Origin: a virus
Direction: 5' to 3' (one strand)
Virus record (IMG/VR): IMGVR_UViG_3300030397_000361
Coordinates: 25-64,024 of that record
Length of the DNA stretch: 64,000 bases
Made by a program: the position numbers and the translations under genes. Numbering within the stretch: the first letter of the stretch is position 1; every line of letters begins with the position of its first letter. A model generated the notes under the pieces. It did no database searches, was not told where the DNA came from, and saw only the letters and a program-made list of their open reading frames with translations. Below, piece after piece: positions 10,602 through 19,353 of the stretch.

Positions 10602-12008
10602 CTACGATGCAACTTTTTGGACTGCCATTCGCCACGGCTCTACCGTTTGACCGCCTAAGCGTCGGCGCATCTCGTACTTGACAATGTTTTCGCCGGGGTT
10701 GACATCGTAACGCTGCACAGACATCCCTACACGGTCAACGATCATGTAGGCTTCAGGATCACCGAATAGGATCGGGAAGGCGTTAGCCGCTACATCGGGC
10801 ATTGATTCTTGCTCAAGTACGGGGTAGCCGCGCAAGGTATTAGGCGTGCCAGCGGCATTGTTCCCGCGCATCTCTGTCCAGAAGTACGCGCCGTCACTGT
10901 CAGCCAAAACCGCAATAGCCTCAAAAGTGGCTCGGTTAGCGATCCAGGCGGCACGTTGCCGGTACTGGGCCGCAATCTCAAAGGTGAGCCGGATCAAGCC
11001 CGTAAAAGTCAGGGCTGATGCGTTGCCACTGTTTTGCTCGGACAAGCTGTTGCCATTGGCACTGCCTGGCAGTAAGCCTTGTGGCTTCCCTGCACCCGTG
11101 CCAACCAAGAAGGTGTTGTCCTCATTGATAGCAGCGGCTTGGGCAAATTGACGCACCAGATAGCCACCAAGCTCAAAGGCGCTGTCTTCCAGCAAGTTCT
11201 TGGACAGCGGAACAAGCCCCATTGCGGTGTGAATGGGGATGTTTTCCAGTCCAAAGGTAAGGTTAGTTTCGCTTGCGCTACTGGTGGGCGTTTCATCTAC
11301 CCAGGTTTCGCGGACTGCGCCCACATACTGATCGTCGCCCCCCGTTGCTTTGGGGAACTGAACGCGATCACGGCTAGTTCGTTCGGTTTGGGCACGTCCA
11401 CGCATTGCCGTAAGACCGGGCAGACGCTCAATAACTCGTGCCTGAAAGTCAACTGGAACAACGAAGCCGCCCAGGCTGTCTACCGCTTCAACCATTGTTG
11501 ACTTAAGGTGTTCGATTTCCCAGCCTTCCTCGATAGCTTTCTTGGTGTAATCCGGGGTCAGGACGATCTCGTGAAGCAGATCAAGCGATTTTTGATCAAG
11601 CGTGCGCTCGCGTCCGCGCATGTAAGCGATAAAAGCCTTCCACTGATTGGCCCGTTTCCACTCATAATCTGCGCCGTGCAAGTCAACCAAGATAGCCTTG
11701 ACCGCATTATCAGTTTCGCCGTAGCGCATCTGATAAATGGACTTGGCCATTAAATCCTTGGGGTCTTCCTCGCCCTTGGCGGCTTTAGCCTCTGTAGCGG
11801 GTTCAGCAGAAGGCAGTGGCGCTGGCATCTCTGGTTGATCCAGATCGGCCATCAGTTCGGCGGCTGACTTAGCGGCTTCGCCTTGCTCTTTGAGGTTTTT
11901 TGACTCCTCGATGAGCGTAGCGAACTGCTGCAAATCGCCGGACTCAGCGGCGGCTTTGGCTTCCTCTGCCTTTGCTTTTGCCTTTTTGAACAATTCTTTA
12001 TAGTTCAT
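10602..12008 (-). CDS. Major capsid protein (HK97 fold, with N-terminal delta domain)
   Basis: GGFVVPVDFQARVIERL, GTGAGKPQGLL, LRGYPV, FGDPEAYMIVDRVGMSV, RRLGG motifs. Confidence 0.95.
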   Translation of the reverse strand: MNYKELFKKAKAKAEEAKAAAESGDLQQFATLIEESKNLKEQGEAAKSAAELMADLDQPEMPAPLPSAEPATEAKAAKGEEDPKDLMAKSIYQMRYGETDNAVKAILVDLHGADYEWKRANQWKAFIAYMRGRERTLDQKSLDLLHEIVLTPDYTKKAIEEGWEIEHLKSTMVEAVDSLGGFVVPVDFQARVIERLPGLTAMRGRAQTERTSRDRVQFPKATGGDDQYVGAVRETWVDETPTSSASETNLTFGLENIPIHTAMGLVPLSKNLLEDSAFELGGYLVRQFAQAAAINEDNTFLVGTGAGKPQGLLPGSANGNSLSEQNSGNASALTFTGLIRLTFEIAAQYRQRAAWIANRATFEAIAVLADSDGAYFWTEMRGNNAAGTPNTLRGYPVLEQESMPDVAANAFPILFGDPEAYMIVDRVGMSVQRYDVNPGENIVKYEMRRRLGGQTVEPWRMAVQKVAS

Positions 12009-12025: not shown

Positions 12026-13555
12026 CTAAACGTTGTTTGCTTCTAATTCAACAAGTAGCAGATTGGCCTCGGCTTGAGCCATTGCCTTTTTGACCTCATC
12101 AGACGCCCCCGCGTCTTCGGATTCAGCATCAAGGCAAATACCTTTGGCTTGGCATATTTCTGCCACCTGGGGAATGTCATTAGCCAACGCCTTAAGCGTT
12201 GAAAGTTGGTTGCCCTCGATCATGCGAGGTTCCATCGGGGTAAAAGTCAGCGTGTCACGGCGAATTGGCCACACGCGAATTTCGCCATTGTCGCCTTTTT
12301 GCACGGCTGATGATACGGCCTCGCTTGAGGTGCCGATCCAGCCCTTTTCAAACACGCCCAACTGTTCAAGCATTTGAATGTAGCGATTACGGCGGTTCAG
12401 GGCACGTTGCACCCATAGCCCGGTGCCGTCTTTGGTTGCGGTATTCCACAAGACCCGCCCAAGCGGCTCATCGCGGCCTGGCCCTTCTCTGTCTGGTTTG
12501 CGTCCGTGTTCAAAATCAACAACAACAGCGTCCACATCGGTGTAATCGCTGCCAAAGGTTGTGTTTTTGGTGAAGTATTCGCCTTTGGTTCCATCGGGGT
12601 TTACGTTGTTGCTTAATTGGCCTTCCAGATCGCGCCCGCCCCACAAAGCAATGTAGTTGCCAACAATGATCGCGTCATCGGTCTGAGAAATGGCCTTTAA
12701 GGCATTGCTTGGGGCAAGTGCTGCCTTGTAAGCGGGTTCGTCGTGGTCAGGGTCGTCGTTTTTCATCCCTTCCTTATCACGATCTTCACCGCATTTGGCT
12801 CCCAACCCCTTAGTCATATCGTGAATACCTTGAATAGTCTCTTGATCCTCGCGGTTGTTACGCCGCCCTGCTTTGGCGGCTTCATCGTCATCGCCTGCTA
12901 CAGCGCCCCACGAGTCGCAAACATAGCCAACGTCATAGTTGAAGCGATATTCGGAGCAAAGCCGATCATCGTTATTACCAAAACGACAATTGCTACACTT
13001 GATATTACCTCGTGAGATGTGATAGTTTGGCGCATCTTCGCGCCCCTTTGTGGCCTTTACGCGTTCAAAGCCGCCCTCAAGCTTTAGCTCGTGGCGCTCG
13101 TCGCCTATGGCCAGCGACAATGTGTCAATCTCAAATTCGACAGAAGGCAGGGTGCTGATAGGGGAAGGCTCATCAGGAGCCAAATAAGCCAAAGTGATGT
13201 GCGGGGTAAAGCCGTGCTGTTTTGAGATTTTCACATCGGCTTCATCTTCCCAGCGCAAGGTGGAGATAAGCGCCTCTCGGAATCGAGTTAGCTGTACGCT
13301 ATCAATGGACGCATAAAAGGGTTCTCGTTCATCATCTCGTGACGCATTGAAGCGCCCAACGCCGCTAATCCGTGCCGTGAATGGCACTTGATGCTGTGCC
13401 CACTGTGCGACCGTGTGCTTTAGCGCCTCAGTGTCTTCAACGTCTTCTAAGGGAACAAGCGTAATATGAAGATCATTAATCGCTTCGCCTTCTGGCAGGG
13501 CGATGCGTTGAGCCACTTGCGGCGGGAGAAAAATACCTAGTATTCCTGACGGCAT
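12026..13555 (-). CDS. 2H phosphoesterase fused to Cys-rich linker and prohead protease/scaffold
   Basis: Two HxT motifs (LHITL, PHITL) in the first ~130 aa; CSNC..C..C segment; C-terminal EYFT..., DFEHG, GTSSEA, TLTFTPMEPR prohead-protease-like motifs; upstream of the MCP. Confidence 0.8.
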   Translation of the reverse strand: MPSGILGIFLPPQVAQRIALPEGEAINDLHITLVPLEDVEDTEALKHTVAQWAQHQVPFTARISGVGRFNASRDDEREPFYASIDSVQLTRFREALISTLRWEDEADVKISKQHGFTPHITLAYLAPDEPSPISTLPSVEFEIDTLSLAIGDERHELKLEGGFERVKATKGREDAPNYHISRGNIKCSNCRFGNNDDRLCSEYRFNYDVGYVCDSWGAVAGDDDEAAKAGRRNNREDQETIQGIHDMTKGLGAKCGEDRDKEGMKNDDPDHDEPAYKAALAPSNALKAISQTDDAIIVGNYIALWGGRDLEGQLSNNVNPDGTKGEYFTKNTTFGSDYTDVDAVVVDFEHGRKPDREGPGRDEPLGRVLWNTATKDGTGLWVQRALNRRNRYIQMLEQLGVFEKGWIGTSSEAVSSAVQKGDNGEIRVWPIRRDTLTFTPMEPRMIEGNQLSTLKALANDIPQVAEICQAKGICLDAESEDAGASDEVKKAMAQAEANLLLVELEANNV

Positions 13556-13595
13556 TGCTTTTACCTCTGCGTTTTTCTCGATTAAATCAGATGAA

Positions 13596-13752
13596 CAAAA
13601 AAGGACGGCTTACCAACCACCCTTGCAGATGCTTGATAAGCCGTCCTTTCAGACGTGTTAAATTAAATTGTCGAGAACGTCAGTACTGCATTGACGAACT
13701 GACGTTCTCAGTTTGCGAACAGACAAAGCGCGAGCGGCGTGCTTTGTCTGTA
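13596..13752 (-). promoter_or_regulatory. Structured leader (three hairpins, last a terminator) before the protease-capsid operon
   Basis: IRs ACAGACAAAGC/GCTTTGTCTGT, GAGAACGTCAGT/ACTGACGTTCTC, and AAAGGACGGCTTA/TAAGCCGTCCTTT followed by a U-tract on the minus strand. Confidence 0.65.
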
Positions 13753-13757
13753 TAGTT

Positions 13758-13786
13758 ATTTTACCGCTTTGCACCGATTACGTCAA
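13758..13786 (-). promoter_or_regulatory. Putative late promoter A
   Basis: TTGACG-17-TAAAAT; flanks identical to the promoter at 29357..29384. Confidence 0.65.
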
Positions 13787-13961
13787 CACAGCCAGAACGA
13801 AAGTTCTGTTTCAGCCAAACGCGCTCGTGCTTGGTTGGCACCGGGTTAGATCGACCAAGGATTTTCGCTATCTCTCGGATTTCTTCTATAAGCAAGTCAT
13901 AGCGTATTTCGTAATACGTTTTAAGTTGCGGCGTCATTTGTTTTTTGTGCTGATCGCTCAC
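13761..13961 (-). CDS. Hypothetical protein
   Basis: 66 aa ORF; promoter A lies in its 3' end. Confidence 0.55.
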   Translation of the reverse strand: MSDQHKKQMTPQLKTYYEIRYDLLIEEIREIAKILGRSNPVPTKHERVWLKQNFRSGCVDVIGAKR

Positions 13962-14154
13962 TAATTAAACCTTGACAATTGGCGCTTAATGCTTTTAAGC
14001 GCATTGATAATCACCCTTCTTACATTCTTGGAGCCTAAAGCCAATCCGATCACAAAAACCCACCAGTATGCGAGAAATGCTTCAATCATTTCCTTGCTAC
14101 TACCTTTCTTTAGATGCCCCGCCTGATAGCGTCGAACTCTTGTGTTTTACACGC

Positions 14155-14469
14155 TTAATTAAACCTTCGTAACTTTACTACAATTTCTCTGTCCGCACCT
14201 TGCGGAAACGTTGTTGACATGCGGAATTGCTCGCCCAGCCAGTGAGACTGATCATAGGTAAGTGTCGTCCAGCACGACAACGCGATACTTAGTGATAAGT
14301 CGTTGATTCTATAAAACACGCCGGTTGCGTCTGGTACCCACAGCCCAACGGTGGTGCCTGTAAAGGCTGCGGGCGCTAGAATTGCAACTGGCATGTACTC
14401 GGGCATCGAAACAACATCGCTTTGGGTTTGTCCTGACTGAATAGTTGCGGTTGCGTATGATTCTCTCAT
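14155..14469 (-). CDS. Hypothetical protein (possible virion accessory)
   Basis: 104 aa beta-rich ORF with GGAG SD. Confidence 0.6.
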   Translation of the reverse strand: MRESYATATIQSGQTQSDVVSMPEYMPVAILAPAAFTGTTVGLWVPDATGVFYRINDLSLSIALSCWTTLTYDQSHWLGEQFRMSTTFPQGADREIVVKLRRFN

Positions 14470-14640
14470 GTTCTAGCTCCTTTTTGTCGATTTCGTGCGG
14501 CCATAAACCGTGAAATTTCCAAACACAATGGTCGCGTTGTTTGGCATGTCGCTCGTCACTTCTACGGACAATCCCTTCCCGCAAGCAAAACTCACGGCAC
14601 TTACGCATAAATTCTTCAGCGCCCCTTGCGTTTTTCATCG

Positions 14641-14934
14641 TCAACCCTCTTGGTTCCATTCAAAAGAAAATTCGCCCCAAGGGAACGCCGACGCGCTCCC
14701 CGTTATTGTGGCTGTGATTTCAGGAAGCTCCTCAGATAAAGGCACTTCGCGCAAATCATCGTGTTCAACGTAGAAAAGGAACGTTCCATTCAAGTGATGA
14801 TGCCTGACAATGTTATGGATAATGGCATCGCTTGGCATCCCCAAAGCCTCTTTTATGAAAGATTCGTCTACCCGCATCACTGCCCTTCTGCGAGATGGCA
14901 ATTCGCTTTTATCGTGCGTCTTTTTAATTTCCAA
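14641..14934 (-). CDS. Hypothetical protein
   Basis: 97 aa ORF coupled to the MuF-like gene. Confidence 0.55.
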   Translation of the reverse strand: MEIKKTHDKSELPSRRRAVMRVDESFIKEALGMPSDAIIHNIVRHHHLNGTFLFYVEHDDLREVPLSEELPEITATITGSASAFPWGEFSFEWNQEG

Positions 14935-15613
14935 GTTTTTCTACCTCCAGCGGATCCCATTCTTTCGACAGGTTGACACAATCCTGGCAATGTTCGGCCT
15001 TGCCAAGCTTCCAAAAAACCTGCCATAGTTTATCAGTTTCCTTGATGCGAAGATGGCACCGGCAATTGGCCTTGCATTGCGTGTTTCCATCGCCTGGGTA
15101 CTGCCTTAGCCTGGGAACGCCTCGCCCTTCTGTTTTGGCGCGTTCAAATGCTTGGCTTGATGCTTCGATGTACATATTGGCCCTGGCTGCAACTGCGCCG
15201 ATGCTGTCTACCGTGTAGCGCCCGGAGGCAATGTCTTGAGCAAATCCGCGCAGAAATTCATATTGCCTGCGCAACATAAAGCCAAGTCGCCCGTAATCGG
15301 CCTGAGTCATATTATTGCGCCCGCCTCGCCCAAGCATATACTGAGCCACAAACACCGTCTTTATATTATTCCGCATCTCGGCTTCCCACTGCTGAATGGT
15401 AATCCGCTTGTCAAACAGGCGACGATGAACGACTTCAAGCCGTTGCTTGTAGCGGTCGTTGAACTGATCGCGCAATGCAACAGCTTGTGTGATGCGCAAA
15501 AAGCGCCCGTCACGACCTCGGTATCTTTGTGCGGCATCGTCCCACACCCAAAGCGGTGAGGGTGAAGCTTGCTTGTATTCGGTTTCTCGCACATCGCTAA
15601 ATACAGCCATCAA
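14924..15613 (-). CDS. MuF-like head morphogenesis protein
   Basis: Follows the portal; C-terminal PGDGNTQCKANCRCHL motif. Confidence 0.7.
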   Translation of the reverse strand: MMAVFSDVRETEYKQASPSPLWVWDDAAQRYRGRDGRFLRITQAVALRDQFNDRYKQRLEVVHRRLFDKRITIQQWEAEMRNNIKTVFVAQYMLGRGGRNNMTQADYGRLGFMLRRQYEFLRGFAQDIASGRYTVDSIGAVAARANMYIEASSQAFERAKTEGRGVPRLRQYPGDGNTQCKANCRCHLRIKETDKLWQVFWKLGKAEHCQDCVNLSKEWDPLEVEKLGN

Positions 15614-17235
15614 ACCTCAGCGTCTAAAACGCCCTCGTGTTCTGGCATTAGGTCATCCCATTGAGCAGTGGTTTCATTCAGGAACCTGGAAGTTTGAACC
15701 TCTTCGCCCAGCCTGTCTGATTGCGGTAAGTCATCAAACAATTGATCTGCCCCCTCGGGGATGAACATTTCAGCGGCTTTGCCGTTCGTGCCAAAAGCGG
15801 CTTTTATCTCTTCCTCGGTGGTTGCCCTGAGCAAAGCAGTTTTTATGGCGGCTTGTTTGCCAATATCAATGTGCTGGCTTTCAAAATCATACCCCCCCGG
15901 CTGTTCCCCTCGTTTCAGCATTCGCCTGGCCACGGACTCCCATCGCTTCAGGTCGGCTTTCTCTTCGCGTTCGCTCTCTTCCTGTGCTTGCTGAACGCCA
16001 TTACCTCTTTGGACTTTTATTTGAGCGATGGAAGCCGCCGCCTCGTAGGGTGCATCGCCGATGTCTGGATCGGGGTGTGGCGGTCTTCCCTTGGCCTCGC
16101 GGGCCTCATTGTACGTCATTGTGCGCCGCTCGTTTTCTTCCTTGCGAATATCTTGCTCAACATTGGCGGGCCGGATGTCTTCAAACACAGCGCGGTATTG
16201 GTTGCCGTAGTAGGGCTGTACCATTTGGATGGTGATGTCTTCGGCAAGCATCTGCATAAGCGGCCAAACAGTATCGTTGATAAGCGCCTGGTTGTGAACG
16301 TGGGCGCTTGCTTCGGTTGCGTTGCGTTCCCAAATGGCATCAGGTACGCCATAGATGTCATTGGCCTGACTTTCGGTAAGCTCGAAAACGGACAGGCTAA
16401 ATTCGTTGCGCGGCGAACTGGTAGACGCTACCGAAATATCGCCAGCTCGTATCACTTTCCACCGTGCCCCAGCCTCGTTTGCCTCTCGCAAGTCTGCCTG
16501 GGCCTGCACAAACTGCGTGCGTGACGTGTCTTGACGCACGCTGATAAGCTGCTGAAGGTTTAGCTTGTTCTGGAAATCGTCAAGCTGTGTTTTTTGGGCT
16601 TCAATGTTGGTTCTAAGCCCCATCAGATAAGCCGAAATTGGCGATAACCCCCGATGATAGTCGAAAGGATTAAAGAAGCGATGGAAACAGACCTGCTCGG
16701 GCTTCAAGAAATTGGGCGGTTGCCCATTGACAGGTGTATACCAATAGCCTCGAAACATCTCTGCTTGGCCAGGGATAGGCTGCACTCTGTTGGCGGGTAA
16801 GGGGTAAACACTGTTTAGCTCGCCGCCTCGGGTGGGCACGAGCATCCAGTACGCCTCCCCACGAAGCAATAGCCAAGCTACTTGATACATCCAGATAAAC
16901 GATTGCGACATCCAGCGATTAGGGCGATACTCTATGATCTCCTCAAAGGGATGCGCCGTGATGTCTTGCCACTTTTCGCGGTTGTCATTGTCGCGCTCTT
17001 GGACCTTGGCCGTACCGCCAGCAACCATTTTGGCTATCTTCATAATATTGCGGTAGACGGCGTAGTTGGTCATTGCCAGCTTTTCAAATTCTTGTGATGA
17101 ATAAGCGGCAAATGGCTGATCCTTGCCCGGTGTTATTTCGCCTGTCAGGGCGACAGGCATCCTCACATCCCCTGCCTTTACATAGCCAAGGCTGCCAACA
17201 AAGCGATCTACTGTGTTTTTGACGATATTAAACAT
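15610..17235 (-). CDS. Portal protein (HK97-like)
   Basis: RPNRWMS, LLRGEAYW, YPLPANRV, VCFHRFFNPFDYHRGLSPI, YGVP, MTYNEARE motifs; probable start MFNIV at 17235. Confidence 0.93.
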   Translation of the reverse strand: MFNIVKNTVDRFVGSLGYVKAGDVRMPVALTGEITPGKDQPFAAYSSQEFEKLAMTNYAVYRNIMKIAKMVAGGTAKVQERDNDNREKWQDITAHPFEEIIEYRPNRWMSQSFIWMYQVAWLLLRGEAYWMLVPTRGGELNSVYPLPANRVQPIPGQAEMFRGYWYTPVNGQPPNFLKPEQVCFHRFFNPFDYHRGLSPISAYLMGLRTNIEAQKTQLDDFQNKLNLQQLISVRQDTSRTQFVQAQADLREANEAGARWKVIRAGDISVASTSSPRNEFSLSVFELTESQANDIYGVPDAIWERNATEASAHVHNQALINDTVWPLMQMLAEDITIQMVQPYYGNQYRAVFEDIRPANVEQDIRKEENERRTMTYNEAREAKGRPPHPDPDIGDAPYEAAASIAQIKVQRGNGVQQAQEESEREEKADLKRWESVARRMLKRGEQPGGYDFESQHIDIGKQAAIKTALLRATTEEEIKAAFGTNGKAAEMFIPEGADQLFDDLPQSDRLGEEVQTSRFLNETTAQWDDLMPEHEGVLDAEV

Positions 17236-17237
17236 AA

Positions 17238-18800
17238 TTAAACCCAACCTATCATTGTTTCTTCGATTGGCGCGAAGGTGAGGCATAGGGCGTCTGCACG
17301 GTCTGGGCTGCGCTTGAGCAAGTCCTTCATTACATCCTTGCTCATCACCTTGATCTTGCCATTAATGATTGCGTACTTTGGCGTTGTTAATTCTTCGATC
17401 AAATACTCATCAGGCGGCAACATCGCGCCTGTATCTGTTCTAAGCCACTCTCGCGCAGACCACCACAATTGATCCCGCATGTTGCCAAACTCACCCATCT
17501 CAGTGCTGTAAGTTGGGCTACTGGCCACCTTGACACCTGTAGCCGCGCAGTCAAGGCGGCTCATCTTGGGAGCTACGCCAGCGCCAACGCCAGTGGCGTC
17601 TATCATCGCGCCGGATGCTTTGTGCTGATGATACAACTCAGCCGCTTTGCTACCGGTCAGATCAATATCCATTCCAGACCAAGAGATGAGCGGCTTCACC
17701 CATCCACCATAGCGGAAACAAGCAACGTTCGCATCTGCGCCGAACTCGGCTACATCTTGCCCCATCAGCGGGCTAATGCCTTTGGGCGGCACTTCGCCAT
17801 TCTCGGCTACGTATAAATCCCATCTGCTGCGAGCGTCATTGATCCACGACCGGCTAATCAATTGCGACTCGCTTAAGGCGCTGTACTTGCCCAATACCAT
17901 ATAGCTGAAGGCGGGGTTCGTGATCTTGCGCCAACCACTGGGCAGGGGCGGGTACTCTTTGCCGCCAAGCGACTGACAGGTTAGCCCCACGAGATAAGGA
18001 CACTCTTCGTCAACGCTAAAGCATTCCTGATCCGGCTTTTCGCCATTCGCAAGCGCCCTTGTCCATTCGTTGATCCGGCGCAAGGTCTTTTCTTGATCCA
18101 CTGCGCCAGGGATAACGTCATTGCCTGTTACAACGTTTGGGTGTCTAAACGCCGACAGTTCGACAACATTACCTAATCCGTCGCGTTCCATCCGGTAAAC
18201 GGGGCCTGACTCGTGGCGCGGGTTAAACATAATCAGCAGGCGGGCGTGCCCACCTGACATACAGCTTTCAATACCACTGTAAACCTCATCCGGTATCGCA
18301 TCGCCTTCGTCAATGACAAAGAGCAAGTAGGGCGCGTGTTTTCCGCTGAATTTGGCCTCGCGTTGGGCTGATGTGCCCGACATCGGAATTGTTACGCCGG
18401 TGATAAAGCTTTGCGGATCACGTTCAATGTGCAAGGTCAGAACACGGTCGTCGGAAAACAAAGCGGGGTTCTCCGATGCGATTGCGCCTAGCTCGCCCCA
18501 TAGCAACAAGCGCAGGTTGTTTACTGGTGGAGCCGCCGTGGTGTAAACCTGGCTGTTCTCAAAGGCTTTGTAAAACCAAGTCACAACACGGGCCGCGGCG
18601 TGGGTCTTGCCAACAGCATTAGCACTCCGAGCAATCGTGACAGGGTAATCACGCACCGAGTTCATGACCGCGATCACGTCATCGGTGTACGCTTCGCCTA
18701 AGACCTCCTCGCCAAAAAGGTGCGGGCTATTCTGATATTTCAGGTGCGGATTGATCTTCGGGCGGGATTTCGTCTGTCGCCGCCTCCGCTCGATCTCCAT
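17238..18800 (-). CDS. terL: Terminase large subunit
   Basis: Walker A ARSANAVGKT, Walker B FVIDEGD, coupling motif FNP, nuclease GQDVAEFGAD, SPDRADAL; probable start MEIE at 18800 (ORF track 18851). Confidence 0.93.
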   Translation of the reverse strand: MEIERRRRQTKSRPKINPHLKYQNSPHLFGEEVLGEAYTDDVIAVMNSVRDYPVTIARSANAVGKTHAAARVVTWFYKAFENSQVYTTAAPPVNNLRLLLWGELGAIASENPALFSDDRVLTLHIERDPQSFITGVTIPMSGTSAQREAKFSGKHAPYLLFVIDEGDAIPDEVYSGIESCMSGGHARLLIMFNPRHESGPVYRMERDGLGNVVELSAFRHPNVVTGNDVIPGAVDQEKTLRRINEWTRALANGEKPDQECFSVDEECPYLVGLTCQSLGGKEYPPLPSGWRKITNPAFSYMVLGKYSALSESQLISRSWINDARSRWDLYVAENGEVPPKGISPLMGQDVAEFGADANVACFRYGGWVKPLISWSGMDIDLTGSKAAELYHQHKASGAMIDATGVGAGVAPKMSRLDCAATGVKVASSPTYSTEMGEFGNMRDQLWWSAREWLRTDTGAMLPPDEYLIEELTTPKYAIINGKIKVMSKDVMKDLLKRSPDRADALCLTFAPIEETMIGWV

Positions 18801-19272
18801 ATCCGCTTGAAGTTGCAATGACAAAGTAGGGGTCTTCTCCCTTTGACACACGCTCTAACTGCTCGTCCGTCATCTTGGTAACATCAATGTTTAATGTTTG
18901 CGTTTGGTTGCGCTGCTTGGGCGGCGCGAAGCTGTCGGGGAACTTTTGCTCAAGCATATACTTAGCCCAGGCAGGATCAACCGTCGCCGCATTGTCGATC
19001 ACATTAAGCCAACCTATGCCTGCGTCTGCCTGAGCTTCCTCTATAGACTGCAATAACTTAAGACATAGCTTTGTGTATCTGTCACCGGACGGTTTCGCCT
19101 CCGGGTCATTGTCCAGCCGCTCTTTTTCAGCCTCGCCAACACGTTTCCACAGGTAAAATGCCCCCTCAGAAACGCGGGCGTAGGTGTACGCCATTTTGTA
19201 ATCGGCACCGATAGAAATGGCGGCGCAAATCTCTTCTATTACTTTGTTCGATAATTTATATTTTCTAGCCAT
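18727..19272 (-). CDS. terS: Terminase small subunit
   Basis: N-terminal HTH (EEICAAISIGADYKMAYTYARVSEGAFYLW), AWAKYMLEQKFP; directly upstream of terL. Confidence 0.8.
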   Translation of the reverse strand: MARKYKLSNKVIEEICAAISIGADYKMAYTYARVSEGAFYLWKRVGEAEKERLDNDPEAKPSGDRYTKLCLKLLQSIEEAQADAGIGWLNVIDNAATVDPAWAKYMLEQKFPDSFAPPKQRNQTQTLNIDVTKMTDEQLERVSKGEDPYFVIATSSGYGDRAEAATDEIPPEDQSAPEISE

Positions 19273-19278
19273 AATTTT

Positions 19279-19353
19279 TGGTAGCGGGGGCGGGAATTGA
19301 ACCTGCGTGGCCCTGTTAATCAGACAGGATCGGGAACCAACACCCTCCCCGCG
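19279..19353 (-). tRNA. Atypical tRNA-like gene: initiator-like acceptor stem, GAT anticodon
   Basis: CGCGGGG/CCCCGCT acceptor with C1:U72 mismatch; anticodon arm CCTGT-CTGATTA-ACAGG; T-loop GGTTCAATTCC; encoded ACCA end; D-arm irregular. Confidence 0.65.

Follow-up and report, generated by a model that had tools for sequence, protein, structure and literature searches.

The open reading frame (ORF) at positions 12026..13555 of the viral DNA analysed here raises the question of why a 2H phosphoesterase should be made as one polypeptide with a phage prohead protease. The DNA is a 64,000-nucleotide stretch (the window) that covers nearly all of a 64,402-base IMG/VR virus record (IMGVR_UViG_3300030397_000361), judged to be about 75% complete. 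The ORF lies on the minus strand, as do all genes and protein features of the window located below, and comprises 509 codons beginning with ATG; a Shine-Dalgarno-like AGAGG (13564..13568, same strand) was read directly in the sequence 8 nucleotides before the start codon. The predicted protein of 509 amino acids (aa) consists, from the N- to the C-terminus, of a 2H phosphoesterase, a Cys-rich module, a linker helix, a prohead protease and a C-terminal tail. For this ORF 220 homologues were found, the top one being 68% identical across 99% of the length. In the composite reading favoured here, which is put forward tentatively, as a good possibility rather than a probability, the protein would be a head-maturation protease with an enzyme cargo that is co-assembled, released and delivered, and that hydrolyses an immune nucleotide signal.

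Residues 1-165 (13061..13555) were assigned to a LigT/ThpR-like 2H phosphoesterase domain by PF13563, a structural model and fold matches. Residues 29-150 matched PF13563 (1.4e-13, 51.6 bits, cut-off 27) and PF02834 (8.7e-07, 29.5 bits, cut-off 23.3). The first catalytic motif, H30-I-T32 (13460..13468), and the second, H119-I-T121 (13193..13201), are the sole HxT motifs in the 509-aa protein and fall one in each lobe, which is the arrangement by which the 2H superfamily is recognised. When 39 relatives were aligned (mean column identity 29%), H30, T32 and H119 were invariant and T121 was conserved in at least 90% of the sequences; G65, R68, F69, P118 and Y124 were invariant as well. An AlphaFold2 model built from this alignment had a predicted local distance difference test score (pLDDT) above 90 over residues 1-160, and its comparison with the PDB gave 68 chains with a Z score of at least 8, all listed entries above Z 9 being 2H-fold proteins. 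The initial annotation of this ORF, made from the sequence alone, had described the domain as a 2H fold with both HxT motifs intact, and these results agree with it on both points.

The top structural match was the 2',3'-cyclic phosphodiesterase (CPDase) of D. radiodurans (5h7e; Z 18.4, root-mean-square deviation (rmsd) 3.1, 159 residues), and TT0787 of T. thermophilus (1iuh, Z 17.7) and LigT of E. coli (5ldm, Z 16.2) scored nearly as high. These LigT/ThpR proteins have the same HxT pairs and share about 20% identity with the domain over 149-159 aligned residues. Lower values were obtained for Usb1 (Z about 14.8), the rotavirus VP3 phosphodiesterase (Z 13.6), Acb1 of phage FBB1 (7t26/7t27; Z 11.2, with 129 residues aligned at an rmsd of 3.1) and the penguinpox phosphodiesterase acting on cyclic GMP-AMP (cGAMP; Z 9.8). 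The ranking by sequence, in which LigT-type proteins are closer than Acb1, agrees with the structural one: a profile of the 2H family found the LigT-type protein PH0099 at 6.6e-9, Acb1 (7t26) at an E value of 0.053 and 9q2g at 0.12. The domain is not a ThpR orthologue but a distant relative, as its score with the TIGR02258 equivalog model was 33.2 bits, far below the cut-off of 65.7; it differs from LigT/ThpR also in being phage-encoded and protease-fused.

Membership in the Acb1 family was likewise rejected. The 509-aa protein gave no match to the Pfam Acb1 model (PF23474) at E values up to 1, the family-profile E value was 0.053, as given above, and Z was 11.2 for Acb1 versus 16-18 for LigT-type enzymes. 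Some relatives matched the Acb1 model weakly (P0003, 22 bits; P0021, 21 bits). The comparison with Acb1 drawn in the initial annotation is thus looser than was implied there. Acb1 (gene 57B in T4) has the same compact, phage-encoded 2H fold with two catalytic histidines, but it is free-standing, with no head-protein fusion, and LigT-type enzymes are much nearer to the present domain; what the analogy concerns is function and not family membership. Judged from its conserved residues, the domain is apparently a LigT-like 2H enzyme with intact catalytic motifs and is predicted to be active.

The remainder of the protein could not be classified in the same way. Residues 160-509 had no match in Pfam (including S78, S78_2, U35 and S77), PHROGs, NCBIfam or the PDB sequences, in both single-sequence and profile searches. 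A model of the protease was examined, built from 109 relatives (pLDDT 82.7), and the core at residues 283-449 (12209..12709) was assigned to the assemblin/T4 gp21 fold from this model and its fold matches. The top 39 matches in a Foldseek search of the PDB were all herpesvirus assemblins. After re-alignment the best match was T4 gp21 (5jbl_C; Z 10.4, rmsd 3.0, 129 residues, spanning model residues 15-171), after which came some 35 entries for herpesvirus proteases (Z 5.5-8.7); unrelated MlaD/MCE domains reached Z 5.4 at most. His350 (12506..12508), the predicted catalytic histidine in the motif DFEHG, and Ser410 (12326..12328), the predicted catalytic serine in GTSSEA, were invariant in the 109 sequences, together with Asp347, Arg433 and Asp434. 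Comparison of HK97 gp4 with the family profile gave an E value of 0.013 at a probability of 3%, and this alignment, statistically weak though sensible in topology, puts His350 on His65 of gp4.

The gene sits between those of portal and capsid in the window, and its stand-alone homologues P0062 and P0065 are found between portal/MuF and capsid genes. With T4 gp21 (5jbl), HK97 gp4 and the herpesvirus assemblins the protein thus has in common the assemblin fold, with Z values of 10.4 for gp21 and 7-8.7 for assemblins, a His and a Ser that are conserved, and a gene beside the capsid gene, and it differs from them in its N-terminal enzyme, its Cys module and the want of any sequence-model match. 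The identity of the protease is argued from fold, His/Ser conservation, gene position and capsid fusions, and not from sequence-family matches. On these grounds the C-terminal half is a serine prohead protease of the assemblin/gp21 fold, in a family without a sequence model. The maturation protease named in the initial annotation is borne out in this way, and supported, too, is the further claim that the fusion physically ties the enzyme to head assembly; the anti-defence role suggested there is a reasonable possibility.

The Cys-rich segment said to join the two halves was also recovered. It is a four-Cys module at residues 174-216 (12908..13036; DAPNY..C187xxC190..C200..C213DSW), kept in 9-10 relatives, with C187, C190, C200 and C213 conserved in 10. 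The pattern DAPNY..CxxC..C..CDxW is common to about ten relatives, several of which carry ChaB instead of 2H. As the closest relative (P0002, 68% identical) is without it, the module is, on the aligned sequences, judged to be an optional insert. It had a pLDDT below 50 in the model and no fold was obtained; at a guess, it possibly binds zinc.

Between this module and the protease core lies the linker motif K228-C255 (12791..12874), with the alignment consensus KAGxRxSxxDxxxxQxIHDxxxxLGAxC. The motif stands ahead of the core in many members of the family, whether or not they have 2H and in capsid-fused ones too (BLAST query residues 222-265), and its helix at residues 235-250 has a pLDDT of 73-89. 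This helix belongs to the protease unit and not to the 2H add-on. The T4-type cleavage motif (L/I)xE occurs twice in the protein, at residues 20 and 501, and nowhere in the linker.

The C-terminal tail, residues 450-509 (12029..12208), is helical in the model and ends in the amphipathic AEANLLLVELEANNV. The last residues are LLLVELEANNV, and similar terminal peptides are present in most relatives that are not capsid-fused, whereas the capsid-fused members terminate in the capsid domain. The 2H domain is upstream of the tail in all 53 of the 53 relatives that bear it, including two in which it follows the protease core (P0030 and P0181) and which still terminate in the same kind of peptide (RLALEIELLAMEAN and LLDLELELLSMEISR). 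That the peptide stays terminal even in this arrangement suggests that it is a capsid-docking tail. In work by Duda, Oh and Hendrix in 2013, the C-terminal tail of HK97 gp4 reportedly directed the protease and foreign fusions into the procapsid. If the tail does dock in this manner, anything upstream of it would be carried into the procapsid.

A search of 1.84 billion representatives with the protease profile returned 2,349 clusters at E values of at most 1e-3, 203 of them at 1e-30 or below, and the protein therefore belongs to a sizeable prohead-protease family (about 2,300 representative clusters) that lacks a curated model. Its members are stand-alone at the protease position, capsid-fused, or provided with N-terminal add-ons. 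Direct fusion to an HK97 capsid protein was seen in 50 of the 248 relatives collected, and Microbacterium phages are known to have protease-capsid fusions (PMC7302621). The 2H-protease fusion occurs in 53 clusters of proteins, which come from independent samples, and so it is not a sequencing artefact; the 2H domain is N-terminal in 51 of these proteins. None of the 50 capsid-fused members carries 2H, versus 53 of the other 198 (Fisher p 1.5e-6).

A search of IMG/VR with the single protein gave no close relatives, and a profile search with the protease alone gave 162 loci, of which 80 were kept. The 2H domain was in the same reading frame in five of these 80 loci, and a separate 2H gene within 4 kb was found in none. 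Of the 128 new representatives that the protease-only search yielded, 14 had 2H, and the share of the protease family with this domain is thus about 6-11%. Other add-ons in the same N-terminal slot are DUF5872, ChaB and unknown extensions of 100-400 residues. In a FastTree phylogeny built from the protease domain, 22 changes are needed to account for the 2H label, versus 48 with shuffled labels, and the well-supported branches force just two; many independent gains of 2H within the family are possible from this tree, whose sample is biased, as its first 120 proteins came from a search with the whole protein as query.

Some variants seen among the family deserve description. A common one in IMG/VR (loci L027-L034, L037, L038 and L045) has an N-terminal extension of about 300 aa with DUF5872 replacing 2H, and another combines ChaB with the four-Cys module. 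Cultured Salinibacter phages encode a 934-aa protein annotated as 'hypothetical protein' (phage 5_12 gene 8; L003, 2207-5008) that shows distant similarity to the protease family in its C-terminal region (26.5% identity, query residues 210-481); upstream of the protease-like region a search of Pfam gave no informative domain, and this protein may be a large polyvalent head protein.

Linkage of 2H domains to phage heads has been described before. In the sections on these domains in Iyer et al. 2017 (J Bacteriol, PMC5512222), phage polyvalent proteins are reported to contain 2H domains joined to MuF or portal; the head-linked 2H is described there as never pairing with an RNA ligase, and either an RNase (Usb1-like) role or degradation of defence nucleotides is proposed. 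The same passages place assemblin-like peptidases at the C-termini of polyvalent proteins, and these proteins are predicted to be packaged and injected. The present protein resembles those proteins, as there described, in having a 2H domain without an RNA-ligase partner together with a head-assembly domain and a C-terminal assemblin-like peptidase, that is, an effector-type enzyme and a head-assembly domain in one polypeptide, by which polyvalent proteins are recognised. It differs in the partner, which is the prohead protease of an unmodelled family instead of MuF or portal, and in its three or four modules, where the polyvalent proteins of that account have many.

The best matches of the 2H domain in cultured phages were all in head modules. 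The actinophage proteins Edmundo gp18, ValentiniPuff gp7 and Ottawa gp87 have a domain of the same 2H subfamily (27-35% identity over about 160 residues, E values down to 3e-17). In gp18 of Arthrobacter phage Edmundo and gp7 of Microbacterium phage ValentiniPuff an N-terminal 2H is followed by a C-terminal protease, as here, and the genes stand after those for portal and MuF; the gene for gp87 of Arthrobacter phage Ottawa stands after the portal gene. The actinophage fusions differ in lacking the Cys module and in coming from cultured phages of Gram-positive hosts. The protease of gp18 and gp7 is moreover of the Peptidase_S78_2 (XkdF) type, and its kinship with the family described here was rejected at an hhalign probability below 1%. 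As the protease halves are unrelated, the pairing of 2H with a prohead protease arose at least twice. These fusions are annotated as 'capsid maturation protease', 'RNA ligase' (Ottawa gp87) or 'aldolase', and no virion proteomics for them was found in the literature.

The gene lies in a head module whose upstream edge is the portal gene (15610..17286; PF04860, 1.9e-30), and the large terminase gene is at 17238-18851 (phrog_2). Downstream of the protease gene is that of an HK97-type major capsid protein (10602..12008; phrog_10), which matches PF05065 at 2.2e-55 over residues 180-458. About 180 residues precede this HK97 capsid domain, beginning with a charged, helix-prone stretch, and they are likely a built-in scaffold (delta-like) region. 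No separate scaffold gene was found in the head module. The arrangement is like that of HK97, in which the protease likewise adjoins a capsid protein bearing its own N-terminal scaffold region, without a separate scaffold gene, and the capsid protein is likely both the substrate and the docking partner of the protease fusion.

Directly after the portal gene, in the usual place of MuF-like minor head proteins, is the gene of a 229-aa protein (14924-15613) with a Cys-rich C-terminal part, its sole match being phrog_24776 (unknown function, 2.6e-27). Between it and the protease gene come three small ORFs (66, 104 and 97 aa; 13761-14934), which are without a PHROG match and look like accessory genes inserted into the head module. 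A promoter-like element (TTGACG-17-TAAAAT) was noted just upstream of the protease fusion gene, in the minus-strand interval 13595-13800; behind it come hairpins and a terminator-like stem (13601-13612 paired to 13637-13648), after which a T run stops about 40 nucleotides before the start codon. As this stem and T run precede the start codon, expression of the protease and capsid genes may need read-through or antitermination.

Genes for RNA repair were also looked for. ARAGORN found no transfer RNA (tRNA) or transfer-messenger RNA gene in the whole window, and a proposed initiator-like tRNA (GAT anticodon) at 19279-19353 was not confirmed by this program. No RNA ligase or RtcB was found in the record, the Rnl1 search having been run without a positive control and the record being about 75% complete.

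From these data the following course of events can be proposed. The amphipathic tail would dock the fusion to the N-terminal scaffold region of the capsid protein, and the whole fusion, 2H included, would be co-assembled inside the procapsid. Proteolysis would free the 18-kDa 2H domain, which, being folded and of this size, would be retained in the head and could exit along with the DNA when the next cell is infected. The most likely task of the enzyme would be hydrolysis of a host immune signal, be it a cyclic oligonucleotide of the cyclic-oligonucleotide-based antiphage signalling system (CBASS) or of type III CRISPR (clustered regularly interspaced short palindromic repeats), or a 2'-5'-linked signal, as with all viral LigT-like enzymes characterised so far. 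These immune-signal degraders are Acb1, the poxvirus cGAMP phosphodiesterases, and the coronavirus and rotavirus phosphodiesterases acting on 2',5'-oligoadenylate. According to the relevant passages of Nomburg et al. 2024 (PMC11410667), LigT-like phosphodiesterases that destroy immune messengers have been adopted repeatedly by phages and eukaryotic viruses.

This delivery of an enzyme cargo is favoured on account of the conservation of 2H, the protease fold, the position of the gene, the placement of the tail, the exclusion of 2H from capsid fusions and the convergent design in actinophages, and also because other add-ons use the same slot and no ligase was found in the record. Several points weigh against it. 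Packaging, cleavage and substrate are all inferred, no protease cleavage site was identified between the 2H domain and the core, and the protease might digest the 2H domain instead of freeing it intact. The domain is nearer to RNA 2',3'-cyclic phosphodiesterases than to Acb1, in sequence as in fold. The missing RNA ligase is not conclusive in a record of about 75% completeness, and no matching defence system of a host can be named.

The nearness to RNA enzymes would be accounted for directly if the 2H domain worked on RNA ends, late in infection or after injection, by opening 2',3'-cyclic phosphate ends (such as host anticodon nucleases or HEPN RNases leave), by re-joining ends through 2'-5' linkages, or by a Usb1-like trimming. 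The nearest structures are indeed RNA CPDases and 2'-5' RNA ligases, with Usb1 after them, the best sequence models (PF13563, PF02834 and TIGR02258) and the hit to PH0099 point the same way, and an Usb1-like RNase role is one of the two options in the cited passages of PMC5512222. The score with TIGR02258 is nevertheless about half the cut-off, an RNA-repair role is ascribed to no characterised viral LigT-like enzyme in the corresponding part of PMC11410667, and the lack of any RNA ligase, RtcB or tRNA gene in the incomplete record leans against classical repair; such a role is considered rather unlikely. Very improbable is a 2H domain with no enzymatic role, kept as a structural or regulatory appendage such as a pro-domain that delays activation, or produced by an error of assembly or gene calling. 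Catalysis in the family is deduced from sequence, and in the closest relative, P0002, the linker is different and has no Cys module, so that the region appears plastic; but the constancy of H30, T32, H119 and, nearly, T121 among relatives as divergent as the 39 aligned is hard to understand without catalysis, and an artefact would not recur in 53 protein clusters from independent samples and in cultured phages.

The remaining explanation keeps the degradation of an immune signal and moves it to the producing cell. CBASS is activated when prohead proteases cleave its CD-NTase (the cGAS/DncV-like nucleotidyltransferase), according to the pertinent sections of Hobbs and Kranzusch 2026 (PMC12991175), so that the statement in the initial annotation that some defences sense the protease is by now published, and that part of its argument is the stronger for it; an earlier screen had tied protease and scaffold mutations to CBASS escape. 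The searched passages of the CBASS literature and of PMC11410667 make no mention of a 2H-protease fusion. A signal-degrading 2H that arises together with the CBASS-triggering protease, at one time and place and in equal amounts, would act as an antidote tied to the trigger, and packaging would be incidental. The gene is in the structural block, so that synthesis of its 2H part probably coincides with that of the protease, a fusion of this sort is seen again with a second, unrelated protease family, and 2H, when present in the IMG/VR loci, is in the protease ORF and not in a gene nearby. On the other hand, 2H is fused also to MuF and portal, which are not proteases (PMC5512222, in the passages cited), and this fits head loading better; the N-terminal slot is taken by DUF5872 or ChaB in other members; and the 2H domain is not a member of the Acb1 family, with no CBASS-bearing host known. 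Such an antidote is regarded as unlikely, and the cargo carried in the head remains the preferred reading; taken together, loading into the capsid or pairing with the protease as a counter-defence is probable.

Head-linked 2H effectors were already predicted in 2017, in the part of PMC5512222 discussed above, and the present fusion is a further example of that kind; specific to the 509-aa protein are the unmodelled protease family, the four-Cys linker module and the conserved tail that fixes the position of the cargo. The fusion is timely because prohead proteases have recently been shown, in the sections of PMC12991175 already cited, to trigger CBASS. If the 2H domain is loaded into the capsid, it would be a pre-made counter-defence delivered with the DNA, and the conserved tail could serve as a capsid-loading tag. 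Effectors delivered with phage DNA have a precedent in Alt and the internal proteins of T4. The cultured actinophages with the parallel fusion are a better experimental starting point than a metagenomic contig. If the antidote tied to the trigger is true instead, it would be a new logic of counter-defence, in which each trigger molecule arrives with its own quencher; it would explain why the same 2H module is present on two unrelated protease families, and it would single out the protease family, unannotated and about 2,300 clusters in size, as a sensed target. Either of these two readings, if true, would give a function to the domain, which is labelled 'RNA ligase', 'aldolase' or 'hypothetical' in databases.

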